IMG/VR virus record: IMGVR_UViG_3300045988_155525
Length of the DNA stretch: 64,000 nt
Reading direction: 5' to 3' (one strand)
Origin: a virus
Shown: piece by piece, positions 7,695-37,951 of the stretch
Layout: each line of letters opens with the position of its first letter
How positions within the stretch are numbered: position 1 is the stretch's first letter
Notes under the pieces: generated by a model
What the model was told of the DNA's origin: nothing
Databases searched by the model: none
Seen by the model: the letters and a program-made list of their open reading frames with translations, nothing else
Position numbers and translations under genes: made by a program

Positions 7695-7720
7695 TTAACT
7701 ACGTAAAAACATTAATAAAG

Positions 7721-8188
7721 ATGGCTACTGCAAAAGTAAAGAACCCACGAAAAAGATTTCTGTGGCAAATAGTATTTGTAAAGCACCCTATAAATGCTTA
7801 TTTATTTCAGAGTGTAACTATTCCTGAGATTACCATAGAACAAGTATCTCATGGTGATATAAACAGGGATGTAAAAACTGGTGGTAGGATTTCAGTTGGT
7901 AATTTAACAGCTACTAAATTGGAAACTACATCTGGTTCCGATACTTGGTTATGGGATTGGTTAATGTCAGTACAAGATTTATTATTAGGTGGAGGATTAA
8001 CTCCTTCAGAATATTGGGAAACTGTATTGATAAATGAATTAGCTGAAGATGGGGTATCAATTCTAAACAGTTGGACTTGTACCGAAGTTTGGCCTACTAG
8101 AGTAAATGGTCAGGAATTAGATAGGATGAGTTCTGATAATACTATAGAAGAGATAGAGTTCTCCGTAGGTACTTGCGAAAAACTGTAA
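7721..8188 (+). CDS. Tail tube protein
   Basis: 155 aa, between sheath and chaperone. Followed by a strong terminator. Confidence 0.65.
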   Translation: MATAKVKNPRKRFLWQIVFVKHPINAYLFQSVTIPEITIEQVSHGDINRDVKTGGRISVGNLTATKLETTSGSDTWLWDWLMSVQDLLLGGGLTPSEYWETVLINELAEDGVSILNSWTCTEVWPTRVNGQELDRMSSDNTIEEIEFSVGTCEKL

Positions 8189-11281: not shown

Positions 11282-11291
11282 TTAACTAATC

Positions 11292-12218
11292 ATGGCAAGT
11301 ATCATAGGTAAAGGCATAGGGTCCATAACTAATAAATTAGTGGATTTAGAGTCGGGGAGGGTATTTACCTCCCCTCTAAATAAACTTTGGAGGACTAAGA
11401 TTTTATTAAATAGGGCTACTTCTCCGATGCCCAAGGATAATTCTATTTCAACGTCTGGTGATTTTATAAACCATCATTATGCTAGAGAAAATTCTTTATC
11501 TATAGCTGAATCTTCAAACAAATGGTCTTCTAGTAGGAGGGTAGCTATGTCTACTGGTAAGAGCCCAATTATATCTACTGATTACACAAAAATCAACCAT
11601 TCAAATTCTCAAGAAATAAATAATCAGATTATAATTATAAATAAGAATGTATCCCCCCCTATATCTATTGTAATACAGAATAGACCAAATGAATTATCAG
11701 TAAACCCACAATCATATTGGGTAAGTGTTAAATCGATGGGTAGAAATAACCCATTCATGATGTATACTGGGGGTGAGGATACAATATCTTTTGATATTTC
11801 TTGGTATGTAAGTGACCCTAATAACCGAGAAGAGGTAATTGCAAAATGTAAATTATTAGAGTCTTGGACTAAAGCCAATGGTTATTTATATGCACCACCA
11901 ACTTTAAATATTCTTTGGGGTACTTCTGGTTTATTTGATAACGATTTATTTATATTAGAGTCAGCCCCTTATACACTAACACATTTTCAAAATGCTGTTA
12001 AAACATCTCCTTATAAACACACCCAATATGGTCAAAGGGTGTCGGATGCAGATTATAGTGTTACTGATTTAAAACTATTACCTAATTTTGCTACTCAAAG
12101 TTTAACCTTTAAAAGGGTAAGTTCTAGTAATAGGACTCATTTAGATATTATACCAGAAGAATTATTAAAGAAAACCAAAGGTATCAGTTTTCAAACTGAT
12201 ACTGGTAATAATATTTAA
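11292..12218 (+). CDS. Tail/baseplate protein (in the position of Mu gp43 'DNA circulation' protein)
   Basis: Called on synteny only. Confidence 0.3.
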   Translation: MASIIGKGIGSITNKLVDLESGRVFTSPLNKLWRTKILLNRATSPMPKDNSISTSGDFINHHYARENSLSIAESSNKWSSSRRVAMSTGKSPIISTDYTKINHSNSQEINNQIIIINKNVSPPISIVIQNRPNELSVNPQSYWVSVKSMGRNNPFMMYTGGEDTISFDISWYVSDPNNREEVIAKCKLLESWTKANGYLYAPPTLNILWGTSGLFDNDLFILESAPYTLTHFQNAVKTSPYKHTQYGQRVSDADYSVTDLKLLPNFATQSLTFKRVSSSNRTHLDIIPEELLKKTKGISFQTDTGNNI

Positions 12219-12221
12219 ATC

Positions 12222-12485
12222 ATGGCTTCAAATAATATAAGTCCATATAGTAATGCTCGAGTTATCAAATATGATAATGGAGACATTACTTTAGAAAGAA
12301 TTCCATATGATATAACTTTAGGCCCAGATACTAGAGTACATACAGTATTAGAAGGGGAAACAATTCAAAACATAGCCTATAAATACTATGGTGATTCTGG
12401 TTTATGGGGTAAGATAGCTGATGCAAATTCTATATATAATCCATTCACTGAATTAGAAGCAGGGATGGAAATTATAATTCCTTGA
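12222..12485 (+). CDS. LysM-domain tail protein (P2 gpX-like)
   Basis: HTVLEGETIQNIAYKYYGDSGLWGKIADANSIYNPFTELEAGMEIIIP is a LysM motif. 87 aa, as for gpX. Confidence 0.7.
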   Translation: MASNNISPYSNARVIKYDNGDITLERIPYDITLGPDTRVHTVLEGETIQNIAYKYYGDSGLWGKIADANSIYNPFTELEAGMEIIIP

Positions 12486-12488
12486 TAT

Positions 12489-13061
12489 ATGGCTTCAGAA
12501 ATACAACAAGATAGTAAACCAATATTACAGGATGGTACGGGTACTCCCTATTTGGCCATATTTGATGGTAGTGGTAATGCTATTATTGACCCATTGAGTA
12601 ATTTACCCATTGGAGTTTTTTGTACTGATTTCGAATATTCTTATGATGAAGATAAAGAGGATACTGGGTATATTATATTAGAAACTAATAACCCAGATTT
12701 AATCTCAATCCCACAACTAAGGTATCAGATGCCCATTAAATTACAGTGGGGATGGATATATCCTTCAGAAAAACCTAAATGTGGTCAAGTAAGAACGGTA
12801 ATAATAATAGGTCATGAGGTAGAATTTCAACAAGAAGGTACTCATATTACTATAAACTTTGCTGATTCTTCAATTTTATTGAAGAATACTCCATCATCTT
12901 ATTACCCTCAATCAGATGGGTTTTTTGATTATGTAAAAAACTTGTTAAATGGTAGTCCAGTTGGTGTGCAATTAGTAGATTATAATCCTTCTGCTACTGT
13001 TGCTGAAAAGGTTATTGCAAAAAGAGTGATAAAAAGTGAGGATTTGCAAAGATTAAAATAA
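12489..13061 (+). CDS. Hypothetical baseplate-module protein
   Basis: Called on synteny only. Confidence 0.3.
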   Translation: MASEIQQDSKPILQDGTGTPYLAIFDGSGNAIIDPLSNLPIGVFCTDFEYSYDEDKEDTGYIILETNNPDLISIPQLRYQMPIKLQWGWIYPSEKPKCGQVRTVIIIGHEVEFQQEGTHITINFADSSILLKNTPSSYYPQSDGFFDYVKNLLNGSPVGVQLVDYNPSATVAEKVIAKRVIKSEDLQRLK

Positions 13062-13068
13062 TTTTGTT

Positions 13069-14841
13069 ATGTCATCTCCAAAAATAGATGTAGAAGCTCT
13101 AAGGAGTAGTAATTTTAACCCCTATGAGGTACTTCAAGAGCCAGATAAAAATGACCCAGATTGTGTGGGTATAAAAATTCTAGAATATACCCCTGAGAAT
13201 CAAGAGTTAACTGAAAGGTTCCCAAATGATTTTAAAGAGATTATACATAAGCATGATAGAGCCACTAATATAATAATAAGTGGTTGTTCTAAGAATTTAC
13301 GTGGGCAATTAGAACAAATAGCCAGGAATATACCTGGTGGTCCATGGAGTCTAGATGGTAGAGATGGTACATTAAATATCCATAATCAGAAAAAATTAAG
13401 ACCTATTACTAAAGTATATACTTATGCTGGTGGTAATGGTGAATTACTAAGGTTTCAAGTAAAATCTAAATTTGTAAAGTCTTCTGTTGAAATATCTAAA
13501 GCAGCTGATATAGACCCAGATACTAAAGATTTAGATGTAACCACCGCTCAAACTTTAGTAGATATAAATGGTGATAATGTAGATGGATTTATACATTGGT
13601 CAGGTAGACAATGGTTAGATACAAGCCCTGACTTTGGCAATAATCCAGACCCCAATGCAGGGGACCCAAGGACCAGGTTATCTAATAGACCTTTGTATGA
13701 TGAGTATGCTATCTGGGACCCACAGGTATTAGAGAATACTAGAAAAAGGCAAGAAGTATCTAGGCAAGAGATACAAAGAGCTAAAGAAGAATATGATAGT
13801 TTACCTGAATTTTCTAGTATATCAGATGCTCAAAAAGCTATATCAGCAGACCCACAATTAACTTCAGAAGAAGTTAATGCTTTTATGGAACAACTGAGGG
13901 GTAGGTTCGAATCTTTAAAAGACCCACAAACTTATTCCACTCTAGATAAGGCTATTCATGATACCAATGTATTGGGTAACTTTACTATAGAACGTAAAAT
14001 TAAATTAAGAGAAACTATAGACCCTACTAGATATGACCCTAACCCACCTAATTCTTTAAGTAATGCTGGTATGGGTAGAGCTTATATACACCCAAGTCAA
14101 GTATATGCTGAAAGACAAAGTTCTTGGGATAGGGGTTACAACCATTTAAAAAAGCAAGGTAATATAGAAATTATATCCAGAAATCAATCTGGATTAAAAA
14201 CTGATTATGGTACACCAATAGGTTGTTATGATACCATCACCATAGTTAGGGAAGCTACAGTTACTGTACCAATAAATGGTGCCAGAGTTTTAAGTTCTGA
14301 TGTGACACCTAATTCTGGAGTTTCTATGGGTAATGATATAGAAGAAGTGGTTAAAAATCAGGTTACTGCTACTGCTTTGGTTGTAGGGGACCCAAGTATA
14401 GAATCATCTATGAATATACAAATACAAAATGTATCTTCTAAGTATTCAGGTTCTTGGTATACTAAAAAGGTAACCCATAAATTCAATAGTGGTAGTGGAT
14501 ATACTTGTGATATAGAATTTATACAAAGAGATATTCCAGTATCTAAGAATGTAATAAAGGCAAATTTAGTGGTTCAAAAGGCTATGGCAGATATTAATGG
14601 TATAGCTAAAGAGTCATTAAAAACTGGTGCTTATGATAGAATACCAGTATTACAGAATACTCTTTTGGAATATAAAGAAAAGTTCCCTGGTTATTCATTT
14701 TTAGCCATAGAAGAAGGTCCAGGTACATATGCTATATATAAAGCAGATAAGGACTTTAATGTAGACTATATTGAACAAGGAGGTAAAATTGATTATTCCA
14801 ATATAGTTAGAGTAGATACAGTTACTTTTGAGAAAAATTAA
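13069..14841 (+). CDS. Baseplate hub protein (P2 gpD / Mu gp44-like)
   Basis: 590 aa upstream of the spike. The C-terminal region (YSGSWYTKKVTHKFNSGSGYTCDIEF) resembles the gpD-family end. Confidence 0.5.
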   Translation: MSSPKIDVEALRSSNFNPYEVLQEPDKNDPDCVGIKILEYTPENQELTERFPNDFKEIIHKHDRATNIIISGCSKNLRGQLEQIARNIPGGPWSLDGRDGTLNIHNQKKLRPITKVYTYAGGNGELLRFQVKSKFVKSSVEISKAADIDPDTKDLDVTTAQTLVDINGDNVDGFIHWSGRQWLDTSPDFGNNPDPNAGDPRTRLSNRPLYDEYAIWDPQVLENTRKRQEVSRQEIQRAKEEYDSLPEFSSISDAQKAISADPQLTSEEVNAFMEQLRGRFESLKDPQTYSTLDKAIHDTNVLGNFTIERKIKLRETIDPTRYDPNPPNSLSNAGMGRAYIHPSQVYAERQSSWDRGYNHLKKQGNIEIISRNQSGLKTDYGTPIGCYDTITIVREATVTVPINGARVLSSDVTPNSGVSMGNDIEEVVKNQVTATALVVGDPSIESSMNIQIQNVSSKYSGSWYTKKVTHKFNSGSGYTCDIEFIQRDIPVSKNVIKANLVVQKAMADINGIAKESLKTGAYDRIPVLQNTLLEYKEKFPGYSFLAIEEGPGTYAIYKADKDFNVDYIEQGGKIDYSNIVRVDTVTFEKN

Positions 14842-14845
14842 TACC

Positions 14846-15520
14846 ATGACAGTAGGTGAATTAATTCAAAAATATGGTATAGAATACATCGGTAGATTTT
14901 ATTCAATATATCGTGGAGTAGTATTGGATAATCAGGATTCTGATAATATTGGTAAATTACTTATTATAATACCTTCTATACATGATGGTGTTAAAGTATG
15001 GGCAAGACCATATAATAATCCAGGTAGTATAAATTCAGGGGTAAAGTGGTTAATCCCTAGAGTTGGAGATATAGTTTGGGTACAATTTGAAATGGGTGAC
15101 CCAATGAGACCAATATGGTCTTATCATAGTTGGGGAATAGGAGAGGTACCAGAAGAATTACAAAGTAATGATACAGTTGGTTTAGTGACTCCAACTGGTA
15201 ATAAGATTTATATAAGTGAAGTGGATGGTTCCTTAACCATTATATTAAATCAAAAAGTAACCATACAAGTAATTGATGGTAGTTCGATAACTATTGATGG
15301 TAGTTCGATAACTATTGATGGTGGAGATAAATTGACCATCAATTCTAGTGATACAATTTTAAATGGGGGTAGTAATGGAGGGTTGGTTAATGTGGATTCT
15401 CTAAGAAATTTAGTCACCTCCATACAAACTGATTTGGCTACTGTTGGTTCCGGTACTCAGGTAACAGCTTGGATGGTAGATGGGATGGTTAATATTGAAG
15501 ATACTAAAGTAAAACATTAA
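14846..15520 (+). CDS. Baseplate central spike (gpV / gp5-OB / VgrG-like)
   Basis: YRGVVLDNQDSDNIGKLLIIIPS...VWARP...PRVGDIVWVQFEMGDPMRPIW is an OB-fold spike motif. A beta-helical repeat follows. Start moved from the TTG at 14828 to the ATG at 14846, just after the previous stop. Confidence 0.65.
   Translation: MTVGELIQKYGIEYIGRFYSIYRGVVLDNQDSDNIGKLLIIIPSIHDGVKVWARPYNNPGSINSGVKWLIPRVGDIVWVQFEMGDPMRPIWSYHSWGIGEVPEELQSNDTVGLVTPTGNKIYISEVDGSLTIILNQKVTIQVIDGSSITIDGSSITIDGGDKLTINSSDTILNGGSNGGLVNVDSLRNLVTSIQTDLATVGSGTQVTAWMVDGMVNIEDTKVKH
15275..15322 (+). repeat. Perfect 21-nt tandem repeat (2.3 copies) in the spike beta-helix
   Basis: gatggtagttcgataactatt occurs twice, then gatggt. It encodes DGSSITI DGSSITI DG. 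Confidence 0.9.
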
Positions 15521-26229: not shown

Positions 26230-26628
26230 ATGCCTCGTAAAAAACAAGAATTACCTGATTTAAGTAAAACTAATATACTTAAACCAATTACATTAGATAT
26301 GATAGGTTCTAATGGTGACCCATGTTTTGGTAAGAATTATGATTTATCTACCGAAGAATGTAAAATATGTGGAGATTCAGAATTATGTTGTATTAAGTTT
26401 TCTAATTCTCTTGGTAAAACTAGAAAGGAGTTAGAGAAAGAGAATATCTATAAAGATTTAGATATCTTAATAGATAAAACTGCAGCTAAAAAAATGTTTA
26501 GAACTTTAAAACGTAAAGGTGAGGATAAAAAATCTATAATAGATAAATTACAAAAGAAATTTGAGTTAACCAGACAAGAAACTAGGCTTTTATATAAAGA
26601 ATTTTCAAATAAAAGTACCACTAAATAA
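26230..26628 (+). CDS. Hypothetical Cys-cluster protein
   Basis: DPCFGKNYDLSTEECKICGDSELCC suggests a possible zinc-binding element. Confidence 0.4.
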   Translation: MPRKKQELPDLSKTNILKPITLDMIGSNGDPCFGKNYDLSTEECKICGDSELCCIKFSNSLGKTRKELEKENIYKDLDILIDKTAAKKMFRTLKRKGEDKKSIIDKLQKKFELTRQETRLLYKEFSNKSTTK

Positions 26629-26638
26629 TATATCCATT

Positions 26639-27160
26639 ATGTCAAATTTATTATTTACAAAAGTAAGGAATGTTAAGGCTCCAGAAAGAGCCCATATAGA
26701 GGATGCTGGTATAGATTTTTTTGTACCAGAATTTGATTATAACTTTCTTAAGGATTTTGAAAATAAGAACAGATTAACTACTAAATCGGGTATTATAAAT
26801 TCTACTGAGATTTTGGTAGCTCCCCATGATAGAGTATTGATACCTAGTGGTATAAGGGTAATACTACATCCAGGTTCGGCTTTAGTTGCCTTAAATAAAT
26901 CTGGGGTAGCCACTAAAAAGGGTTTGTTGGTAACTGCACAGTTAATAGACCCACAATATACTGGGGAAGTACATATAGGGGTATATAACTCAGGTGATGA
27001 TAGTCAGATTATAAATTGTGGAGAAAAATTAGTACAGTTTATCCATATACCAATTTTTAGTTCAATACCCGAAGAGTTAGGTTTTGAAATATATGAACAA
27101 TATATTTCAAAAATGGGTTCGGATAGAGGAGATAATGGGTTTGGTTCAACTAATAAATAA
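26639..27160 (+). CDS. dut: Trimeric dUTP pyrophosphatase
   Basis: AGIDFF, SGIRVIL, GLLVTAQLIDPQYTGEVHIGVYN and DRGDNGFGST are the classic dUTPase motifs. Confidence 0.85.
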   Translation: MSNLLFTKVRNVKAPERAHIEDAGIDFFVPEFDYNFLKDFENKNRLTTKSGIINSTEILVAPHDRVLIPSGIRVILHPGSALVALNKSGVATKKGLLVTAQLIDPQYTGEVHIGVYNSGDDSQIINCGEKLVQFIHIPIFSSIPEELGFEIYEQYISKMGSDRGDNGFGSTNK

Positions 27161-27170
27161 AGTATAACAT

Positions 27171-28109
27171 ATGGATTCTAGAGATATAAAAGAGGAACCT
27201 AAACCAATTGCTGATTCCAAATATTTAGAAACTTTATATGGTTTACAAAAAGAACTTTTGGATAATTATATAAAGATTGAGGGGTTACCCATGTATCCAT
27301 TGGATATAAATACCAAAAAGTCTCAAATAATATTAAAGGATTTTGTGGGTAGGGTAATTGAGGAATTAGCTGAAGGTTATGAATCCCTATTAGCCGTAGA
27401 TGAGTTAACTCAAAAAAATGAGTTATGGGTAAATGAGATAAATGAAGTAGATTATATACAGACTTTAAATCATTTACAGAATGCAGGTGAAGAGATTGCT
27501 GATTCTCTTCATTTTATGTTAGAGTTACTGATATACTCTAATATCCAACCTAAGGACATAGATGATTTCATAGAAAAATACATTAAATATCAACACCACC
27601 CTATTACTACTAATGGTAGTGAAGTAAAAGAGTATTGGTATCAACTTTCAGAACAAAATATCTTAAGGAAGGCTATAGTAGTTGGTACCAATATGATGTA
27701 TGATAAGTTACCCATAGACTTAGAAAGTAACTTAAAGAAAACAGTAGATTTGGTACAAGATATAATTGATGATTATGAGGATTCCTATGAATTTATACAT
27801 AAGCATGTATTAGATATAAGGTATCTAAGTTGCGGTAGATATTATAGTCATGAGTTATATTACTCCTATAAGTATATGTTATGGGAAGTAACATATTGGT
27901 TGAATATAGCTAGGAACTTCTTAAAAAATAAGCCATGGAAACAATCTCAAATGATGACTAATGAATCTGGATATCAAGAAGCTATAATTATGGCCTTCTT
28001 AAGTATGATGGGATTATTCTTTAATTTAGGCTTAGTAGATTCTGATATATATTTCTTGTATTGGAAGAAAAATAAGGTAAATCAGTTCAGGATAAAATCT
28101 AATTATTAA
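27171..28109 (+). CDS. All-alpha NTP pyrophosphohydrolase (MazG / dimeric dUTPase / T4 gp56 dCTPase-like)
   Basis: LQKELLDNY..., acidic metal-binding helices RVIEELAEGYE and GEEIADSLHFMLELLIY, then NKPWKQSQ (the K-x-W-K signature region of dimeric dUTPases). Confidence 0.5.
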   Translation: MDSRDIKEEPKPIADSKYLETLYGLQKELLDNYIKIEGLPMYPLDINTKKSQIILKDFVGRVIEELAEGYESLLAVDELTQKNELWVNEINEVDYIQTLNHLQNAGEEIADSLHFMLELLIYSNIQPKDIDDFIEKYIKYQHHPITTNGSEVKEYWYQLSEQNILRKAIVVGTNMMYDKLPIDLESNLKKTVDLVQDIIDDYEDSYEFIHKHVLDIRYLSCGRYYSHELYYSYKYMLWEVTYWLNIARNFLKNKPWKQSQMMTNESGYQEAIIMAFLSMMGLFFNLGLVDSDIYFLYWKKNKVNQFRIKSNY

Positions 28110-28112
28110 TAG

Positions 28113-29081
28113 GTGATGGAGCAGTATTTAAATTTATTAGATAAGGTAACTAACCATGGTTATTATAAACCTTCTGCCAGGAAAGGTATGCCAGGTACTT
28201 ATGAAGTATTTGGTGAAATGTTAAGGTTTGATTTAACTGAAAATTTCCCCATATTAACAACTAAAAAAGTATACTTTAAAGGAGTAGTAGCTGAGTTACT
28301 TTGGTTTTTAAAGGGTAAAACTAATATCCATTACCTTTTAAAAAATAATGTACACATATGGGATGATGATGCCTATAAATATTATCTAAGGTTATGTAAA
28401 TACCGAGGTATAGAAGAAGAATATTCTAAAGAAAGGTTTATTAAGATGATAGAATCCTGTGATATTTGTATAACAGGATTAACAGGATTAGAAACTAATA
28501 TACCATTAATTGATGGTTCTTTTTACCATTATGGGGATTTAGGTTTTTCATATGGGCATCAATGGACTTATTGGGAACATAGCTTAAATCAGTTAGAACA
28601 GTTAATAGATGGTCTTATCGAAAGACCTAATTCTAGGTATCATGTAGTAACAGCTTGGAACCCTAATCAAATATTTCCCCTAGAAGTAGCAGTACCCCCA
28701 TGTCATATACTATTCCAATGTAATGTACGTAATAATAAGTATTTGGACTTAATAGTAACTCAACGTTCCTGTGATATATTTTTAGGGCTTCCATTTAATA
28801 TATCCTCTTATGCTTTATTAAACCATCTTATTTGTAGGCTTACTGGATATGAGCCAGGGGAATTAATATGGGTGGGTAACTCCATACATTTATATGAGAA
28901 TCATATAGAGGCTGCAAAAGAGCAACTAAAAAGGAAACCACTTAATAATACGGCTATAGTTAAACTTAAAGAAGAAACCTGTAAATACAAAAATTTATGG
29001 GATTTTGAAGTAAGTGATATCATACTAGAAGGATACCAATCCTTAGAATCAATTAAAGCTCCTTTATCGGTGGGTATTTAA
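28113..29081 (+). CDS. thyA: Thymidylate synthase (ThyA)
   Basis: Collinear with E. coli ThyA as recalled: MEQYLNLLDKV, FPILTTKK, AELLWFLKG.TN, GDLGFSYGHQW, PPCHILFQ, TQRSCDIFLGLPFNISSYALL, HLYENH. Confidence 0.85.
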   Translation: MMEQYLNLLDKVTNHGYYKPSARKGMPGTYEVFGEMLRFDLTENFPILTTKKVYFKGVVAELLWFLKGKTNIHYLLKNNVHIWDDDAYKYYLRLCKYRGIEEEYSKERFIKMIESCDICITGLTGLETNIPLIDGSFYHYGDLGFSYGHQWTYWEHSLNQLEQLIDGLIERPNSRYHVVTAWNPNQIFPLEVAVPPCHILFQCNVRNNKYLDLIVTQRSCDIFLGLPFNISSYALLNHLICRLTGYEPGELIWVGNSIHLYENHIEAAKEQLKRKPLNNTAIVKLKEETCKYKNLWDFEVSDIILEGYQSLESIKAPLSVGI

Positions 29082-29087
29082 TAAGGT

Positions 29088-29849
29088 ATGAGAAAGAAGA
29101 TTTTTAATGATTCCTTAGAAGCCTGGGAGAAAATAAATGAGGCTTTTATAAAAGGAGAAAAAGGTTGGGATATTATTATAAAAAATAAGGCTCTGTATTT
29201 ATATGATTTAGTAATTGAGGTAGCTAATCCAAGGCTACCTCAAAATTTTGATTTTGGAAGACATTTTAACTATACCATATCCAAATGGAATAATCTAATA
29301 GGTAATTATATTAATAAACCAGATTTACAAAAAGTAAAATCCTGGGTATCTAAAGAAGAAGAGAAAAATAATAAGGTATATAATATACCATTATCATTTG
29401 ATAATAAACATGGTCATGGTAAGAGTTGTTTATTATCTATGGTATTTTCTAGAAGAATGGGTGATGTATTACCTTCAGTAGTGGTATTTTTGAGAGCTTC
29501 TGAAATTACTAAAAGATTGATATGTGACTTATTATTATTTCAAAGGGTAGGTGAATATATTTATGGAGAAGATGATTTTAAATTAGTTATCCATTTCAAC
29601 CAGGTATTTAATGATGATACTGTATTATTAATGTATGATGTACATCGTGATATCAAGAGTATATTGGGTTCAGTAACTAACAGTGATAGAAAAAGGTATC
29701 TATTAGAAAGGTTAGAATATTTAAAGAGTTGTAATCCAGATGATATTAAGTATAAGGTACATAAAAGAGCTCTTAAAGTATTGAGACCAGATTTATTTAA
29801 ATACCCAAAGACACTAGTTAGAGATTGTAAGTTACATATTACAGAATAG
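29088..29849 (+). CDS. Hypothetical protein, possibly a very divergent ThyA-fold paralogue
   Basis: Weak pattern only: GKSCLLSMVFSRR...VVVFLRASEITKRLICDLLLFQRVGEYI...LVIHFNQVF, compared with PC..QF...QRS.D...N...L...H.Y. Confidence 0.3.
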   Translation: MRKKIFNDSLEAWEKINEAFIKGEKGWDIIIKNKALYLYDLVIEVANPRLPQNFDFGRHFNYTISKWNNLIGNYINKPDLQKVKSWVSKEEEKNNKVYNIPLSFDNKHGHGKSCLLSMVFSRRMGDVLPSVVVFLRASEITKRLICDLLLFQRVGEYIYGEDDFKLVIHFNQVFNDDTVLLMYDVHRDIKSILGSVTNSDRKRYLLERLEYLKSCNPDDIKYKVHKRALKVLRPDLFKYPKTLVRDCKLHITE

Positions 29850-29897
29850 ATAAATATACTAACTTTTTTTTATTAAAACCATTAAACATTTAAAAAC

Positions 29898-30686
29898 ATG
29901 AGGATTTATTCAAATGGGTATGAGTTAATATCCGAAACTGGTCGTAATTTATGGGAAATGGGTTCCGAAGTAAAGCCAAAAACTTATCAAAATAAAGTTA
30001 TAGCTGGTAATGATGATTTTATTACTAAAGAACTTATTTGTGAACAATATTGTTTAACAAAATTGGAAGATGAAGATATCTTATTTGTATTTACAAATTG
30101 TAAAGATTGGGCTATAGCTGAATTTAAAGAAAGGATTGATTCCAGGAGAATTAACCCTGGTGAGGCTTATAAATTGAGGTGGGAAATTTGGAATGATTTT
30201 TTGACCAATATAGATACTCATGAAATAGGTAGTGATGTATATAGTGTACCTAAATTTGATTATACATATTCCGAAAGGATTAATACAGAAGTAGATTACA
30301 AGGGATTAAAGTATCCTAAATTAGAAGCTATAATTAGGTTGTTAGAAGAAGACCCAGATACTAGGAAAGCAGTATTGAATATATTTGGAACTATAGATTC
30401 TAACTATTATGATGGTTATCATAGGATACCATGTTCTATGTATTATGATTTTCTAATCAGAGAGAACCCAAGAGGAGAAAAGCAATTGAACTTATGTTAT
30501 CATCAAAGGAGTTCTGATTTTATAACTCATTTTGGAAATGATGTATGGTTAGCTTGGCAATTAAAGGATTATGTTGCAAATAGGTTAGGAATTAAGCCTG
30601 GGTACTTATACCATACTATTGATTCTTTACATGTGTACAAAAAGGATTGGGTGAAATTAAAAACTTCCCTCAATAGTATGGTATAA
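29898..30686 (+). CDS. ThyA-superfamily pyrimidine C5-transferase, closest in pattern to T4 gp42 dCMP hydroxymethylase
   Basis: EEDPDTRKAVLNIF, RIPCSMYYDFLIR, LNLCYHQRSSDFITHFGNDVWLAWQL, IDSLHVYKKDW. Asp sits at the ThyA-Asn177-equivalent position. Confidence 0.6.
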   Translation: MRIYSNGYELISETGRNLWEMGSEVKPKTYQNKVIAGNDDFITKELICEQYCLTKLEDEDILFVFTNCKDWAIAEFKERIDSRRINPGEAYKLRWEIWNDFLTNIDTHEIGSDVYSVPKFDYTYSERINTEVDYKGLKYPKLEAIIRLLEEDPDTRKAVLNIFGTIDSNYYDGYHRIPCSMYYDFLIRENPRGEKQLNLCYHQRSSDFITHFGNDVWLAWQLKDYVANRLGIKPGYLYHTIDSLHVYKKDWVKLKTSLNSMV

Positions 30687-30766: not shown

Positions 30767-30841
30767 TGAGCTATAGTATAATGGTTAGTACAGGGGATTT
30801 TGATTCCTCTAGTCCTGGTTCAACTCCAGGTAGCTCAACCA
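30767..30841 (+). tRNA. tRNA-Gln (anticodon UUG), CCA encoded
   Basis: Hand-folded cloverleaf. Acceptor tgagcta/tagctca, D stem gtat/gtac, anticodon stem gggga/tcctc with loop ttTTGat, T arm cctgg-ttcaact-ccagg. Confidence 0.85.
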
Positions 30842-30846
30842 AAAAT

Positions 30847-30932
30847 GCTCGGATGGTGGAATAGGTAGACACGTGGGACTTAAAATCCCATGGACAGCGA
30901 TGTTCGTACGGGTTCGATTCCCGTTCCGAGTA
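30847..30932 (+). tRNA. tRNA-Leu (anticodon UAA), class II with long variable arm
   Basis: Acceptor gctcgga/tccgagt, anticodon stem tggga/tccca with loop ctTAAaa, long variable arm, T arm acggg-ttcgatt-cccgt. Confidence 0.85.
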
Positions 30933-30955
30933 CTACAATTTAAATAATTATTATA

Positions 30956-33223
30956 ATGGTAACCAGATATCATATAATAAGAACCTTTAGTGAATTAAAA
31001 CAATTAATAGAAGCATGCTCAAAAACTGGGTATGCTTCTGTTGACTTTGAAACTAATGCTAAAGGTATCTATACAGATGAATTTAAACCAACCATATTAT
31101 CAGTATCCTTTCAAGTTGGTTCAGGTGTAAGTATCCCATTACAACATTTTGATGAATCAGTTTCTTTTTTACAAAAAAATGATTTATGGTTATCATGGTT
31201 ACAATATTTCGGTAGGAAAGTAATAGAAAATCCAAACATAGTAAAGGTAGGTTGGAATTGGAAATTTGATAATCAGATATTTGTAAAGTATGGTATATAT
31301 GCTAGGGGTACTGTAATTGACGGTATGTTAGCAAAATATCTCTTAAATGAAGAAAGACCTAATGGTCTGAAAGATATGGTTAGGAGATATTTGCCAGAAT
31401 TTGGTGATTATGAAAAGTATGATAAATTCGATAATATACCATGGGATAAAAAACCATTAGAACCATTATGTAGATACGGTTGCATGGATGTAGATTTTAC
31501 CCTACGTTTATCTATATTTTTGGAGGCTAAATTAATAGAGAAAGGTTTTTATAGTTTATATAGGCATCTAATAATGCCTGCAAGTAAAGTATTGCAATCA
31601 GCTGAATGTCATGGTTTACCTCTAGATAAAGAGTTGAATGAATCTTTGCAGGTAAAATATAATAACTTAATAGAAACCTTTACTAATAAGCTTTATTCAA
31701 TTCCACAAGTAATAAAATATGAAAAATATACTAAAAAGGAGAGAAAAGATAAGTATATTAATAAACTAAGGGAAGAAATTGAAGAATTAAGTAGTCAAAC
31801 TGGGAAAGAGAGGCAAATAAAAACCAGAGAACAAAAAATATCCCGGGTTTTGGTTGGGGAATATGTTACTAAAGAAGAAAAAGCCTTAGATAATCCAGTA
31901 AACTTTAAATCAACCAAACAGATGATTGATTTATTGTTTATATCTCCCAAAGGGTTCAAATTTCCAATATTAGCTTATACCAAAGATGAGAAGACCAAAA
32001 GGGATACTTCCAACCCTAGTACTTCAGAGGATGTTTTGGTCAAGCTAAAGGCTTATGATAAATCTAGTTTTATAGATACTTTATTGGAATTGAGGGGTGT
32101 ATCAACTATAAATTCCACTTTTATAGTAGGATTAGGTAACCTTATTCAAAGTGATGGTTGTGTACACCCAACATTTCTAATACATGGTACAACTTCTGGA
32201 AGGTTATCATCTAGGGAACCCAATGGTCAAAATATACCCAAGACTATGGTTAACCCCGATGTAAAACTTCAATTTATAACTCCCCCAAATAAGTTATTTT
32301 TAACTTATGACTACTCTCAAGCAGAATTACGAATATTAGCCCATTTGGCTAAAGAAGATACCATGCTAGAGTGGTTTAGAACTGGTAAGGATATTCACTT
32401 AGCATCCGCTTGTAAAAAATATCATGAAGATTACGATAAGATAATAAAAATCTATGAAGATGAACAACATCCAGAACATAAACTTTGGAAAAAAAGAAGG
32501 AAACAAGCTAAAACCATAAACTTCGGTATAGTATATGAACAGTCTGCTCCTAAATTAGCAGAATCTCTTTCAACTCCAGAAGAAGTAGTATCAGCAGAAG
32601 AAGGTCAAGAATTTCTGGATGATTATTTTTGTACTTTTCCAAAGATTAAGAAATTCATGGAAAAGCAACATAAATTTATGGAGAAAAATGGATATTGTGT
32701 ATCTTTATTTGGTAGGAGGAGAAGATGTCCACAAGTGTACTCTGAAAAGTATGGGGAATATTTAGAGGCTTTGAGACAGAGCACAAACATGCCATGCCAA
32801 TCTGCAGCATCAGATATGGCTTTATTTGCATCTGTTATAGTTTATGAAAAGGTAAAAAAAGGAGAATTACCCCCAATGGATGAAGTAGATACTGTACATG
32901 ACTCAGTATATCAATTCATTGAACCCAAGTATTTAACTCCAGATACTATATATGGTATATGGGATATTTGTCGTAATCCATCTACTAAAAAGTATTTTGG
33001 ATTTAGTATAGATGATGTTGATATGTCCATGGATTTTACTGTGGGTAGGAATATGGCGGAAGAGTTACCCTATATACCAGGTTATGATTATTCAAAACTT
33101 TTAAGAGAAGATTTTGATATAAATGAATATTATGAGGAACATAAAAAGACCCGGGATATAGCCATTAAAGAGTATCCTAATATATTTAAAGAAGACTTTT
33201 CTATGTCATGGAGAAAAAGATAA
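30956..33223 (+). CDS. Family A DNA polymerase with 3'-5' exonuclease domain
   Basis: Exo I SVDFETN. Pol motif A DYSQAELRILAHL, motif B RRKQAKTINFGIVYEQS, motif C TVHDSV. Confidence 0.9.
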   Translation: MVTRYHIIRTFSELKQLIEACSKTGYASVDFETNAKGIYTDEFKPTILSVSFQVGSGVSIPLQHFDESVSFLQKNDLWLSWLQYFGRKVIENPNIVKVGWNWKFDNQIFVKYGIYARGTVIDGMLAKYLLNEERPNGLKDMVRRYLPEFGDYEKYDKFDNIPWDKKPLEPLCRYGCMDVDFTLRLSIFLEAKLIEKGFYSLYRHLIMPASKVLQSAECHGLPLDKELNESLQVKYNNLIETFTNKLYSIPQVIKYEKYTKKERKDKYINKLREEIEELSSQTGKERQIKTREQKISRVLVGEYVTKEEKALDNPVNFKSTKQMIDLLFISPKGFKFPILAYTKDEKTKRDTSNPSTSEDVLVKLKAYDKSSFIDTLLELRGVSTINSTFIVGLGNLIQSDGCVHPTFLIHGTTSGRLSSREPNGQNIPKTMVNPDVKLQFITPPNKLFLTYDYSQAELRILAHLAKEDTMLEWFRTGKDIHLASACKKYHEDYDKIIKIYEDEQHPEHKLWKKRRKQAKTINFGIVYEQSAPKLAESLSTPEEVVSAEEGQEFLDDYFCTFPKIKKFMEKQHKFMEKNGYCVSLFGRRRRCPQVYSEKYGEYLEALRQSTNMPCQSAASDMALFASVIVYEKVKKGELPPMDEVDTVHDSVYQFIEPKYLTPDTIYGIWDICRNPSTKKYFGFSIDDVDMSMDFTVGRNMAEELPYIPGYDYSKLLREDFDINEYYEEHKKTRDIAIKEYPNIFKEDFSMSWRKR

Positions 33224-36403: not shown

Positions 36404-37307
36404 TAAGTTATTATTATTGATAGATGGTTCTAATCTAGCATATAGGGCTTTTCAAAAATTTGAATTGTTGAAGGCTAGGGATGGTAGAAAAACCGGGTTA
36501 ATATATGGATTTATGAGATTACTTAATTCATATATTACTAGGTTCAGACCTACTTATGTTATAGTGACTTTTGATACCAAGAAAAGTAAATCATCAAATT
36601 TTAGAAACGGTTTACTTGGAGGTTATAAAATACACCGAAAAAATAACCTGTCTATGGATTATGAAGAATTCAATAGACAGGTTAGGTCGGTTAAAAAAAT
36701 GTTAAAATACCTTAATATCCCTGTAGTATGGGATTCAAAGGGGTTAGGTCATGAGTCCGATGATTATATAGGTTACTATGCTTTAAAACACAAAGGTAAA
36801 GTAATTATAATATCTTCAGATAAAGACTTTTGTCAGTTAATCAGTAAGAATATAAAGATATATAACCCTTTCAAGGAAACCATAATTCAGGAAAAGACTT
36901 GTATGGATGTAATGGGGTATAACCCCAATGAGTGTGTGGATTACCTATGTTTAATTGGTGATAAATCTGATGATATACCTGGATATATAGGGATGGGTCC
37001 AGTAAAAACTAGGTCATTTTTAAATGAATTTGGTTCCATAGAAAATTTCCTTAGTGATGATACTAAAGAATTTAAGGGAATAGATAGAGAAGGACTAAAA
37101 GACCTTTATGAAAGGAATAAGACTCTTATAGATATAAGAATAGCTTTAGAAAAATACCCATTGAAAAATATACCTATAATATATTCAAAGGTAAACAAAA
37201 TTCAGAGAGGTAAATTAAGAGAAGAATTTAAGAAATACACTTTAAGTTCTTTTATGACAGACAGCTTTTTAAAACCCTTTTTAAAATTAAGACCATGGAG
37301 AAAATAA
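36393..37307 (+). CDS. 5'-3' exonuclease / flap endonuclease (T4 RNase H-like)
   Basis: LLLIDGSNLAYRAF, IISSDKDFCQL, LIGDKSDDIPG. Confidence 0.8.
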   Translation: MSTDKLLLLIDGSNLAYRAFQKFELLKARDGRKTGLIYGFMRLLNSYITRFRPTYVIVTFDTKKSKSSNFRNGLLGGYKIHRKNNLSMDYEEFNRQVRSVKKMLKYLNIPVVWDSKGLGHESDDYIGYYALKHKGKVIIISSDKDFCQLISKNIKIYNPFKETIIQEKTCMDVMGYNPNECVDYLCLIGDKSDDIPGYIGMGPVKTRSFLNEFGSIENFLSDDTKEFKGIDREGLKDLYERNKTLIDIRIALEKYPLKNIPIIYSKVNKIQRGKLREEFKKYTLSSFMTDSFLKPFLKLRPWRK

Positions 37308-37951
37308 AAGTAACCTTAACTGGACCTAGTGGAGTAGGTAAAACCACTTTAGCAAAAGAAATATCTAATATGTTTACCATACCTTTTATATCTGGTTCTT
37401 ATTCTGATTTAGTACCAGAAACTAGAAATGAAAGGCATGAGGATATGATTAATAAAGAACCTAAAATTATCTTTGAGCAAGATATGCAGGTTCTTTGTAA
37501 AAGGAGGAATGCTTTTAATGTTACGGATACATTCGTATCTGATAGGAGTTATATCGATTCTGCAGCCTACATTATAAATAAATTATCTCATAGATACCCA
37601 GAGTGTGAAATAGATAGTTTTTGTAATTTATGTAAAGCATTAACTAAACAAACCACTCATATTATATTTATCCCATTTTCCAAAAACTTTATGAACCATT
37701 GGGAGATGGAGGATAATAATAAAAGGGTATTGAATAGGTATTATCAATTTGAGGTATCTCAAGTTATATTTGGGTTACTTGATTTATGGGGATACCGTAA
37801 TAAATGGTCATATTGTACCAATACTGTATCAGATGCTGGGATAATAACTATAGAAGATAAGGAAATACCTATATTAATTCTTGATGAATTAGACTTCAAT
37901 AATAGAGTTTCTATTGTTAGAAGGTTCTTAAAATCTACAGAAAATTTATGA
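37295..37951 (+). CDS. P-loop nucleoside/nucleotide kinase (dNMP kinase-like)
   Basis: P-loop LTGPSGVGKTTLAKE. SDRSYIDSAAY resembles dNK/TMPK lid-region patterns. Confidence 0.55.
   Translation: MEKIKVTLTGPSGVGKTTLAKEISNMFTIPFISGSYSDLVPETRNERHEDMINKEPKIIFEQDMQVLCKRRNAFNVTDTFVSDRSYIDSAAYIINKLSHRYPECEIDSFCNLCKALTKQTTHIIFIPFSKNFMNHWEMEDNNKRVLNRYYQFEVSQVIFGLLDLWGYRNKWSYCTNTVSDAGIITIEDKEIPILILDELDFNNRVSIVRRFLKSTENL

Follow-up and report, generated by a model that had tools for sequence, protein, structure and literature searches.

The hmC pathway of the T-even phages comprises, in T4, the dCTPase/dUTPase gp56, the dCMP hydroxymethylase gp42, the dNMP kinase gp1, td, and cd; a beta-glucosyltransferase, a DNA-decorating enzyme, is annotated immediately adjoining gene 42. 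Other enzymes with the fold of thymidylate synthase (TS, ThyA) also act on cytosine nucleotides. The 5-hydroxy-dCMP synthases RB69 gp48, DLP3 gp80, and HY126 AfhB are flavin-dependent ThyA homologs that carry Asp at position 177 and act on dCMP (PMC13326640). MilA, from mildiomycin biosynthesis, owes its cytosine-nucleotide specificity to Asp at 177 (PMC13326640); its name and pathway mark it as a bacterial enzyme of antibiotic biosynthesis that works on a ribonucleotide, CMP. Replacing Asn177 with Asp turns TS into a dCMP enzyme (PMC13326640 and the available part of PMC8670742), and Asp or Glu at the Leu143 position correlates with hydroxymethylation (PMC13326640). According to the available part of the MetaGPA study (PMC8670742), Asp177 TS homologs mark contigs shown experimentally to be C modified, where they co-occur with all-alpha NTP pyrophosphatases (NTP-PPases) and dCMP deaminases.

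Here we compare with these systems a gene cluster in a 64,000-nucleotide (nt) viral sequence (IMG/VR record IMGVR_UViG_3300045988_155525), referred to below as the window. From its layout, we infer that the window is a member of the candidate family "Flandersviridae" of Bacteroides phages (Benler et al. 2021, PMC8008677), with which it shares a structural block with baseplate genes, followed by DnaB, DnaG, and PolA, and then by ∼20 kb of unknown genes. The likeness extends to contigs of ∼75 to 87 kb from the human gut and to an optional ispD-plus-licD insertion in the replication module (PMC8008677). Genes for ispD and licD family transferases directly follow the ORF5 homolog (see below) in 13 of 81 relatives; Benler et al. 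read ispD/licD as isoprenoid or teichoic acid functions, and the words thymidylate, dUTPase, hydroxymethyl, and modification are absent from their main text (PMC8008677). The available part of the MetaGPA paper does not cover these phages. An earlier note on this sequence knew of no described example of such pyrimidine modification in this kind of Bacteroidota-type myovirus, and our literature search found none for the phage group.

The gene cluster and its conserved core

Five ORFs lie in tandem on the plus strand, separated by gaps of 10, 3, 6, and 48 nt, exactly where the earlier note had placed five consecutive genes. The order dUTPase-PPase-(ORF4 paralog and/or ThyA)-ORF4-ORF5-PolA is repeated in 81 related loci, on about 80 "Flandersviridae"-like gut phage contigs. 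The trio of PPase, ORF4, and ORF5 is also found in cultured Clostridium perfringens phages, including P21 and CPD4, and in unrelated, distant phages of ∼45 kb; its usual neighbor is a DNA polymerase gene. Because the order recurs in the 81 related loci and PPase-ORF4-ThyA-like clusters recur in distant phages, the arrangement is not due to chance. The conserved core, which the earlier note missed, is PPase plus ORF4 plus ORF5; canonical ThyA is a rare extra, found in only 4 of the 81 loci.

ORF1 (positions 26639 to 27160; 173 aa) is a trimeric dUTPase, as had been claimed. It matches PF00692 (E = 1.4e-11), phrog_135 (E = 7e-26), and TIGR00576 (E = 7e-19), its translation shows the motifs AGIDF, IDPQYTGE, and RGDNGFGST, and it is kept in relatives. 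By family assignment, its role would be to supply dUMP and to exclude uracil from DNA.

ORF2 (27171 to 28109; 312 aa) had been described as a second, all-alpha MazG/dimeric-dUTPase-like pyrophosphatase, and its family matches bear this out. It scores 29.6 bits against PF08761 (dUTPase_2; cutoff, 22.9 bits) and matches phrog_12184, a nucleotide pyrophosphohydrolase family, with an E value of 7.6e-15. T4 gp56 matches PF08761 over the same C-terminal region and aligns with ORF2 at an E value of 0.001; in contrast, the MetaGPA contigs use PF01503-type pyrophosphohydrolases (PMC8670742, available part). The acidic residues E64, E65, E68, E107, E108, and D111 are invariant, and the AlphaFold (AF2) model is all-helical (pLDDT, 86). 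In distant phages, the PF08761 gene lies upstream of, and adjoins, the ORF4 family gene. ORF2 is thus predicted to be a member of the dimeric-dUTPase/gp56 family and a dCTPase, converting dCTP to dCMP.

ORF3 (28113 to 29081; 322 aa) is the canonical ThyA that the earlier note had reported. It matches PF00303 over the full profile (E = 6.5e-86) and scores 283.9 bits, above the cutoff, against TIGR03284. It carries an insertion of about 50 aa; in the alignment, Cys146, Asn177, and the C-terminal tail are present, and Val stands in place of Leu143. Its family points to conversion of dUMP to dTMP.

ORF5 and ORF4, two divergent ThyA homologs

ORF5 (29898 to 30686; 262 aa) is a tail-less ThyA homolog of a distinct clade (PF00303, E = 5e-16). 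When it is aligned to E. coli ThyA and T4 gp42, Cys146, Arg166, Ser167, Asp169, Tyr94, and Trp80 are kept, and there are four changes: Asn177 to Asp, Leu143 to Arg, His147 to Ser, and Gly173 to His. Among 121 homologs, Asp177, Cys146, Arg166, Asp169, Tyr94, Trp80, and the Arg at the Leu143 position are invariant, and His173 is present in 112. Partner genes of distant ORF4 homologs bear the same residue signature. The diagnostic positions in the MetaGPA study are 177 and 147 (PMC8670742, available part), which in ORF5 are Asp and Ser.

The description of ORF5 as gp42-like holds in part. It is a ThyA homolog that, like gp42, has Asp at the Asn177 position, keeps Asp169, and lacks the TS C-terminal tail, although the missing tail is not diagnostic, since the best NCBIfam match is a short (201-position) methanogen-type TS model. 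However, ORF5 shares only 23% identity with gp42, which is not its nearest relative; its best PDB sequence matches are ordinary TS, the HY126 hydroxylase AfhB, and MilA, and the T4 enzyme is not among them at E < 0.01. In addition, ORF5 has His at Gly173, and at the Leu143 position it has Arg, where gp42 has Asp, as does MilA (PMC13326640). This Arg, as aligned, fits neither known methylases nor known hydroxymethylases; without the Asp or Glu typical of hydroxymethylases, the product is uncertain. The retained Trp80 and Asp169 are consistent with folate use and set ORF5 apart from the 5-hydroxy-dCMP synthases, whose diagnostic D169N is missing here (Asp in ORF5, Glu in ORF4). We predict that ORF5 is a folate-dependent dCMP C5-modifying enzyme.

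ORF4 (29088 to 29849; 253 aa) matched nothing in Pfam or NCBIfam. Its AF2 model (pLDDT, 93.3) has as its best PDB matches in Foldseek the CMP hydroxymethylase MilA (top match; 5jnh and 5b6d; 10 to 12% identical), the phage HY126 dCMP hydroxylase, and the T4 dCMP hydroxymethylase, all with a probability of 1.0 and TM scores of about 0.5. Among the PDB matches listed, HY126 AfhB (9iqu) has the highest target-normalized TM score, 0.60. Against BFVD, the best matches are uncharacterized phage proteins, followed by Acj9 gp42. Because the PDB matches are ThyA-fold enzymes, the "faint ThyA-core pattern" that had been seen in ORF4 is real, and with ORF3 and ORF5 assigned by PF00303, the suggested count of up to three ThyA-fold enzymes in tandem stands. 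The Foldseek check that the earlier note had proposed was less informative for ORF2, whose model had no structural match in the PDB.

By hhalign, C114, R136, E139, and D147 of ORF4 correspond to C146, R166, D169, and N177 of ThyA homologs. In the 219 family members compared, C114 and D147 are invariant, R136 is found in 218, and E139 is found in 213; the family is small, with only 233 cluster representatives in 1.84e9 proteins. As aligned, ORF4 represents an uncharacterized, highly divergent ThyA-fold family that keeps the catalytic Cys and, at the Asn177 position, a cytosine-type Asp. The available part of the MetaGPA paper mentions no such family, and T4 has no counterpart of this extra, obligatory ThyA-fold partner.

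ThyA enzymes form obligate dimers in which the subunits share active sites. ORF4 might accordingly be a noncatalytic structural or regulatory pseudo-enzyme subunit, with ORF5 a plain T4-style dCMP hydroxymethylase in an ordinary hmC pathway. In the related loci, ORF4 always lies next to or near ORF5, and the hhalign region is confined to the core near the Cys and helix J, with the equivalents of Arg126/127, Glu58, and Trp80 not located within it. However, the near-absolute conservation of the Cys, Arg166, and Asp177 equivalents across diverse members is the pattern of an active enzyme, many genomes have two ORF4 paralogs, and in one distant phage ORF4 adjoins the PPase gene yet is 5 kb away from the ThyA-like gene. 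We consider a pseudo-enzyme unlikely.

Public annotations of ORF5 homologs read "thymidylate synthase" and, as noted, the Pfam family of ORF2 is named for dUTPase. Taken at face value, ORF5 and ORF4 would be redundant or degenerate TS paralogs and ORF2 a second dUTPase, all serving dTMP synthesis only. That is highly improbable: every one of the 121 ORF5 and 219 ORF4 homologs has the dCMP-switching Asp, active-site residues are strongly conserved without decay, and the trio is kept even in very distant phages. Moreover, the cluster includes a true ThyA and a true dUTPase, so exact duplicates would be pointless.

Putative kinase, DNA methyltransferase-like gene, and genome composition

The earlier note had assigned a P-loop nucleotide kinase to positions 37295 to 37951 (plus strand; 218 aa). 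The ORF and its P-loop are there, but the kinase call is weak. It matches PF13521 (AAA_28; 39 bits), phrog_2107 ("thymidylate kinase," its best specific match; E = 1e-8), and phrog_1815 ("guanylate kinase"; E = 2e-6); dNK and cytidylate kinase families appear only below threshold, and the PDB matches are to generic Walker A motifs. The gene is kept downstream in some relatives. Possibly, though the matches are weak, it is a (d)NMP kinase that rephosphorylates modified dCMP.

Outside the nucleotide cluster, and bearing on the content of unmodified C, is a C5-cytosine DNA methyltransferase-like gene (59265 to 60275, plus strand; 336 aa; PF00145, E = 2.5e-12; TIGR00675, E = 1.8e-11; phrog_116), which T4 lacks. 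The PSC catalytic, ENL, and QxRxR motifs are visible, and the N-terminal SAM motif is atypical. The gene is kept in 58 related viral contigs at 48 to 72% identity, two of which (..171840 and ..139049) also have the ORF4 locus. If every C were C5 substituted, such an enzyme would be without substrate. There are 2 GATC sites where 175 are expected, and no ATGCAT or CCTAGG sites; thus, the phage still depends on site avoidance. The conserved methyltransferase-like gene and the near-total avoidance of GATC both oppose the complete, broadly protective replacement of C that had been entertained. The lack of a recognizable sugar transferase in the window and the weak kinase assignment also count against it. 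CpG depletion, presumably the support for C modification to which the earlier note referred, is real, but crAss001 shows a likewise extreme value (0.03), so that the depletion is not specific to the module and offers no evidence for the pathway.

The genome is 30.6% G+C, and the cluster could serve to manage nucleotide pools only, turning dCTP and dUTP into thymidylate precursors for a 70% A+T genome while virion DNA stays canonical. The dCMP made by ORF2 would be methylated or hydroxymethylated by ORF5, ORF4, or both, and a host or phage deaminase would turn the product into dTMP or an analog; alternatively, the enzymes would simply starve the host of dCTP. The methyltransferase-like gene and site avoidance fit DNA that still holds ordinary cytosine, and because most relatives lack canonical ThyA, another route to dTMP could be useful. 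A dCMP deaminase gene adjoins the ORF5-type gene in distant phages, but none was recognized in the window, and such deaminases also accompany Asp177 TS homologs on the C-modified MetaGPA contigs (PMC8670742, available part). Our literature search gave no dTMP route via 5-methyl-dCMP, and salvage would not call for as many as two or three ThyA-fold enzymes of the cytosine type in each genome. On balance, we regard pool management alone as unlikely.

A candidate pathway for cytosine modification

The reading that we favor, with a probability of roughly 55%, is that the cluster encodes prereplicative, T4-like C5 modification of dCMP by a different, uncharacterized enzyme lineage. The T4-like logic proposed earlier is upheld by the PF08761 family common to ORF2 and gp56, Asp177 of ORF5, the ThyA fold of ORF4, and the dUTPase and ThyA alongside. 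As in T4, the genes sit in the replication module with a separate true TS; unlike in T4, there is a separate trimeric dUTPase, and no glucosyltransferase was found in the window. Nor were TET or other DNA-decorating enzymes recognized there. The short gaps on one strand and the synteny of the trio in relatives and in distant phages also speak for this reading, as do the ispD and licD family genes directly behind the ORF5 homolog in 13 of the 81 relatives, given that T4 has its beta-glucosyltransferase gene beside gene 42. The combination of domain families is that of the MetaGPA clusters, although the characterized MetaGPA case has a carbamoyltransferase (PMC8670742, available part), unlike this one.

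In the proposed pathway, ORF2 would hydrolyze dCTP to dCMP, removing normal dCTP and feeding ORF5; its family is established, and the substrate is predicted. ORF5 would then place a one-carbon unit on C5 of dCMP, its cytosine specificity following from a well-established determinant, with 5-hydroxymethyl-dCMP the likeliest candidate product. ORF4 would act on the same nucleotide pool, either as a hetero-oligomeric partner of ORF5 or as a second catalytic step in which addition of the Cys to C6 exchanges or elaborates the C5 substituent. A kinase, possibly the P-loop protein, and host NDP kinase may rebuild the triphosphate, which the adjacent PolA would incorporate. In parallel, the dUTPase and ThyA, both assigned by family, would make dTMP and exclude uracil.

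If this is true, a C5-substituted cytosine would take the place of some or all of the cytosine in virion DNA, perhaps as an anti-restriction or anti-CRISPR measure. An abundant type of human gut phage would then carry, in a tight cluster, a modification pathway that draws on two hitherto uncharacterized enzyme families.

Gene cluster and flanking genes

The five consecutive genes described in the earlier note were all found, on the plus strand, exactly where it placed them, separated, in order, by 10, 3, 6, and 48 nt. The first, ORF1 (26639-27160, +), encodes a trimeric dUTPase (PF00692, E = 1.4e-11; phrog_135, E = 7e-26). The third, ORF3 (28113-29081, +), had been called a canonical ThyA, and this call held. 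It matched PF00303 over its full length (E = 6.5e-86; 288 bits; profile positions 1 to 266) and TIGR03284 with 283.9 bits (curated cutoff, 108). Its alignment showed PPCH (which holds Cys146; positions 143 through 177 are in E. coli ThyA numbering), PFNISSY (which holds Asn177), the hydrophobic residue Val at position 143, and the ThyA tail, with the C terminus IKAPLSVGI. By its profile match and by its diagnostic residues alike, ORF3 is a thymidylate synthase (TS) of the ThyA type (EC 2.1.1.45).

Upstream of ORF1 is a Cys-rich ORF of 132 amino acids (26230-26628, +; CFGKNYDLSTEECKICGDSELCC) with no Pfam family; in every related locus that reaches that far upstream, it is kept, at 52 to 99% identity, with the helicase gene on one side and the dUTPase gene on the other. 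Downstream, genes for tRNA-Gln(UUG) (30767-30841, +) and tRNA-Leu(UAA) (30847-30933, +) lie between ORF5 and the gene for a family A DNA polymerase, PolA (30956-33223). This tRNA pair occupies the slot in which some relatives have IspD and LicD genes or other small ORFs. PolA in many relatives appeared as two matching pieces about 0.8 to 1.3 kb apart (11895-15146 in GenBank MT121964, our locus L001; also, e.g., loci L005, L009, L021, and L066), a split that may reflect insertion of an intron, an intein, or a homing endonuclease; the PolA of the window has none. A scan of the cluster for promoters and terminators, with a tool that has no Bacteroidota promoter model, gave nothing above the expectation from shuffled sequence.

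The pyrophosphatase and the two divergent ThyA-fold proteins

ORF2 (27171-28109, +) had been proposed to be a second, all-alpha, dimeric dUTPase-like pyrophosphatase, and both its family match and its model agree with that proposal. It matched PF08761 with 29.6 bits (gathering cutoff, 22.9) and phrog_12184, "nucleotide pyrophosphohydrolase," with E = 7.6e-15. In the same C-terminal part, gp56, the dCTPase/dUTPase of T4, also matched PF08761 (25.4 bits), and there the two proteins aligned with E = 0.001. Among the matches listed, 111 of 120 ORF2 homologues carried PF08761. The model of ORF2 was all helical (pLDDT, 86), and the acidic residues that were invariant across 22 homologues (E64, E65, E68, E107, E108, and D111) were on helices H49-82 and H92-122. 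We take this to be the usual pattern of all-alpha NTP pyrophosphatases, with the acidic residues presumably acting as metal ligands. Foldseek gave no match between the model and the PDB with E < 0.09, and searching PDB sequences with a profile likewise gave nothing significant; the assignment to the PF08761 family comes from Pfam and PHROG. The separate trimeric dUTPase that adjoins ORF2 makes a second dUTPase role for it unlikely, and we predict that its substrate is dCTP.

ORF5 (29898-30686, +) matched PF00303 with E = 5e-16. An alignment of the protein with E. coli ThyA, T4 gp42, and the ThyA of the window showed that it retains Cys146, Arg166, Ser167, Asp169, Tyr94, Trp80, His207, and Tyr209 and carries four substitutions: Asn177 to Asp, Leu143 to Arg, His147 to Ser, and Gly173 to His. 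Its residues C179 and D215 aligned with Cys146 and Asn177, respectively, and with C148 and D179 of gp42, and the Asp residues of the two phage proteins share the same "ND" context. All 121 ORF5 homologues had Arg143, Asp169, and Asp177, and 112 of the 121 had His173. The protein ends about 15 residues past His207/Tyr209 and lacks the folate-closing tail of ThyA. With its invariant Asp177 and missing tail, ORF5 does not fit the pattern of a thymidylate synthase ThyA. The missing tail was also considered as an argument for hydroxymethylation, which we dropped because the best NCBIfam match of ORF5 was a short (201-position) model of methanogen-type TS.

A study of 5-hydroxy-dCMP synthases (PMC13326640) ties the N177D change to a shift of substrate from dUMP to dCMP, hydrophobic residues at position 143 to methyl products, Asp or Glu at that position to hydroxymethyl products, and D169N to the flavin-dependent 5-hydroxy-dCMP synthases. 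According to the MetaGPA paper (PMC8670742), positions 177 and 147 best separate the TS homologues on metagenomic contigs that were experimentally found to be C-modified from those on unmodified contigs. The residues of ORF5 at these diagnostic positions lead to the prediction that it acts on dCMP and uses a folate cofactor. Its Arg143/His173 pair fits none of the product classes that these papers describe.

The earlier note had called ORF5 gp42-like. With gp42-type dCMP hydroxymethylases it shares the ThyA fold, the catalytic Cys, and the Asp at position 177; however, the hydroxymethylase-type Asp or Glu at position 143 is Arg in ORF5, in 121 of 121 homologues, and in all of the distant partners described below, and ORF5 and T4 gp42 are only 23% identical. 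The matches of ORF5 to PDB sequences with E < 0.01 were to ordinary TS, AfhB of phage HY126, and MilA; T4 dCMP hydroxymethylase was absent. Thus, membership in the ThyA superfamily and the cytosine-type Asp177 stood, but orthologues of gp42 are not its nearest relatives. ORF5 also differs from the 5-hydroxy-dCMP synthases RB69 gp48 and HY126 AfhB, which have Asn169 where it has Asp (121/121).

For ORF4 (29088-29849, +), in which a faint ThyA-core pattern had been noticed, the evidence is mainly structural. The sequence had no match in Pfam, NCBIfam, or the PDB (the last search gave only noise), and its sole family match was to phrog_34294, of unknown function (E = 5e-5). An AlphaFold model built from 40 homologues had a pLDDT of 93.3 and a pTM of 0.91. 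Every Foldseek match of this model to the PDB at E ≤ 1e-3 was in the thymidylate synthase superfamily (probability, 1.0; TM, ∼0.5), with the CMP hydroxymethylase MilA, the dCMP hydroxylase AfhB of phage HY126, and T4 dCMP hydroxymethylase at the top. Among the predicted viral structures of BFVD, the best matches were to uncharacterized proteins, from gut myoviruses and Pseudomonas phage PMBT14, with gp42 of Acj9 next. The faint pattern therefore reflects a ThyA fold.

Profile-profile alignment (hhalign) of ORF4 with ThyA homologues was weak, and two runs agreed (E = 0.085 and E = 0.0034, 66 columns). The register, which is weakly aligned outside the core, places C114 at Cys146, R136 at Arg166, E139 at Asp169, and D147 at residue 177; ORF4 also has Arg at the position of Gly173. 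The family is small; among 1.84 billion cluster representatives, a profile search picked out 233 members at E ≤ 1e-3. Across the 219 full-length members, very distant ones included, the Cys and the Asp were each kept in all 219, the Arg in 218, and the Glu in 213, as is characteristic of an active enzyme and not of a decayed paralogue. The Glu (213/219) distinguishes ORF4 from the flavin-dependent 5-hydroxy-dCMP synthases (RB69 gp48 and HY126 AfhB), with their Asn169. Judged by its modeled fold and its core residues, ORF4 belongs to the ThyA-fold superfamily; by sequence it is outside PF00303.

Conservation of the genes across phages

We compared 81 related loci, consisting of 80 IMG/VR viral contigs and GenBank MT121964. 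The gene order was dUTPase-PPase-ORF4b-ORF4-ORF5-PolA in 55 loci (PPase being the ORF2 pyrophosphatase) and dUTPase-PPase-ORF4b-ORF4-ORF5-IspD/LicD-PolA in 13. Three loci had neither ORF4b nor ThyA, three had both, one (L004, the near-identical twin of the window) had ThyA without ORF4b, which is the arrangement of the window, and six were truncated. ORF4b is a paralogue of ORF4 (30 to 38% identity; about 305 to 330 amino acids) that keeps the same Cys, Arg, Glu, and Asp; it directly follows the PPase gene in 74 of the 81 loci (7000-7989 in MT121964 and the equivalent position elsewhere). The window and its twin lack ORF4b and have the canonical ThyA in its slot. By these gene orders, the canonical ThyA is an uncommon extra.

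The trio of PPase, ORF4, and ORF5 was also found in tandem in cultured siphoviruses of Clostridium perfringens, and its carriers include phages P21, CPD4, CP3, and Clo-PEP-1; in phage P21, ORF5 was 40% identical to that of the window, and ORF4 and the PPase were recognizably homologous. Among more distant ORF4 homologues, a PF08761 gene was just upstream in four independent contigs that reach that far. Four contexts had a short ThyA-like gene ≤1 kb downstream, and a fifth had one at a distance of 5 kb. All of these distant ThyA-like partners had the Arg143/Asp169/His173/Asp177 signature, and they were often accompanied by a dCMP deaminase and a PolA fused to UDG. That the trio persists on unrelated phage backbones indicates that PPase, ORF4, and ORF5 are the conserved unit and form one functional module.

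One distant phage (L093; also L094) encodes a TS homologue of 214 amino acids (6454-7098 in L093) that has Asn177 but Asp at the position of Leu143, and the published rule predicts that it is a dUMP hydroxymethylase. Besides a trio of the PPase-ORF4-ORF5 type, this phage has genes for a dCMP deaminase and for a PolA fused to UDG. Because the predicted dUMP hydroxymethylase and the trio occur together, the phage may modify both pyrimidines.

The nearest GenBank records to the window were unannotated phage contigs from human feces (67% identity for ORF5), and homologues were located on contigs of 72 to 87 kb. The layout of the window (baseplate J and V genes, amidase, DnaB-type helicase, Toprim primase, and PolA, followed by some 20 kb of ORFs without families) matches that of the candidate family "Flandersviridae," phages of Bacteroides and Parabacteroides. 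In its main text, the founding paper (Benler et al. 2021, PMC8008677) does not contain the terms thymidylate, dUTPase, hydroxymethyl, or modification, and our literature search found no description of the module for Flandersviridae or for C. perfringens phages.

In 13 of the 81 related loci, genes for an IspD-family cytidylyltransferase and a LicD-family phosphotransferase lie directly between the ORF5 homologue and PolA (10154-10909 and 10902-11774 in MT121964; PF01128, E = 1e-26, and PF04991, E = 8e-39); the window has neither. The founding paper reports this insertion for some members and reads it as having isoprenoid or teichoic acid functions (PMC8008677). Their location beside a cytosine-type ThyA homologue suggests that the two enzymes might have a different role, the attachment of a phospho-alcohol, taken from a CDP-activated donor, to modified DNA.

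Other genes, base composition, and the proposed pathway

The P-loop nucleotide kinase of the earlier note was upheld in part: a P-loop ORF is present at 37295-37951, but it is only generically P-loop, and the indications of kinase specificity were weak. It matched phrog_2107, "thymidylate kinase," over residues 1 to 165 (E = 1e-8) and phrog_139, dNMP kinase, with an E of only 0.006; the Pfam dNK and cytidylate kinase families scored below their cutoffs, and its PDB matches were of the AAA+ Walker A type. A P-loop ORF also precedes the module in C. perfringens phage P21, and comparison showed that the two ORFs are unrelated.

The window also has a C5-cytosine DNA methyltransferase-like gene (59265-60275, +; PF00145, E = 2.5e-12, 47.3 bits versus a cutoff of 22). 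The motifs SPSCG (the catalytic Pro-Cys), LENL, and QKSRKR (QxRxR) are visible in the protein; the profile gave no match to the N-terminal FxGxG motif for SAM, which seems to be atypical. The gene is kept, at 48 to 72% identity, in 58 related viral contigs, 2 of which also carry the ORF4 locus. If every C were substituted at C5, a C5-methyltransferase would have no substrate; therefore, either replacement is incomplete or the protein does something else. A nearby ORF of 831 amino acids (61167-63662, +), with NUMOD4 and HNH_3 matches and an intein-splicing match below the Pfam cutoff, probably represents an intein that contains a homing endonuclease and lies within a host gene.

Some restriction sites are nearly absent from the window. 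GATC occurred 2 times versus about 175 to 180 expected, and ATGCAT and CCTAGG each occurred 0 times versus 5.8 expected; thus, the phage still evades some restriction systems through site loss. GATC ranged from 0 to 66 per 12- to 19-kb locus in relatives and was also absent from crAss001 (0 versus 158 expected), a pattern that suggests host-specific restriction avoidance.

CpG is strongly depleted in the window (observed/expected, 0.19; 0.24, 0.12, and 0.25 at the three codon junctions and 0.29 in a gene-poor segment), and CC/GG is overrepresented (1.68). We rejected this depletion as evidence for modification of C because crAss001 is more depleted (0.03), while T4, whose C is fully hydroxymethylated, is not depleted (0.94). 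The corresponding values were 0.27 for a temperate C. perfringens phage, 1.16 for Bacteroides phage B40-8, and 0.06 to 0.90 for the related loci; the depletion does not track with the ThyA-like module.

We searched for DNA-decorating enzymes with Pfam in 39 ORFs of the window and with PHROGs in 18 of those, and among them no glycosyltransferase or sugar transferase, TET/JBP, dioxygenase, or other such enzyme was recognized. Most ORFs at 41 to 55 kb have no family.

Starting from the enzyme families found, we infer the following pathway. ORF2 would remove dCTP and yield dCMP, and ORF5 would transfer the one-carbon unit of methylene-tetrahydrofolate to C5 of dCMP. The hydrophilic, open active site of ORF5 would favor capture of the exocyclic methylene by water, giving a hydroxymethyl group; the Arg and His near C5 may bring in another nucleophile or lead to another outcome. 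ORF4 would either pair with ORF5 or, by addition of its Cys at C6, re-activate the C5 substituent for exchange or elaboration. A kinase and the host NDP kinase would make the triphosphate, which the phage PolA would incorporate. ORF1 and ORF3 would form the ordinary branch from dUTP through dUMP to dTMP.

T4-like modification logic, as the earlier note proposed, is the best explanation of the cluster, with a probability of about 0.55, but the genes are not a set of gp42 orthologues. The system is a separate, uncharacterized lineage, marked out by the pairing of two ThyA-fold enzymes, predicted to be of the cytosine type, with a gp56-family pyrophosphatase. A bolder reading, which we consider unlikely, is that the PPase, the ORF4 family, and the ORF5 clade make up a hitherto unrecognized three-enzyme pathway to a new C5-substituted deoxycytidylate that is none of the 5-methyl, 5-hydroxymethyl, and 5-hydroxy forms. 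ORF5, with its Arg143, His173, and Asp177, would then make an exocyclic-methylene or hydroxymethyl intermediate, and in the relatives with IspD and LicD, the phospho-alcohol transfer would add a further decoration to the base on the DNA.

Phage DNA with modified bases is resistant to restriction enzymes and to CRISPR nucleases. The thymidylate synthase superfamily recently gave unexpected chemistry, flavin-dependent cytosine hydroxylation, and here two uncharacterized branches of it are locked to a gp56-type pyrophosphatase. The prevalence of the phage group in human guts is reportedly similar to that of the crAss-like phages, and the pathway to a new base, if it exists, runs in one of the commonest groups of human gut phages and in phages of C. 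perfringens. Because the trio is present in cultured C. perfringens phages, the prediction is directly testable on isolates. If confirmed, it would bring to light a new family of enzymes, perhaps along with a new DNA base, and it would change how gut virome data and the conflicts between Bacteroides phages and their hosts are read.
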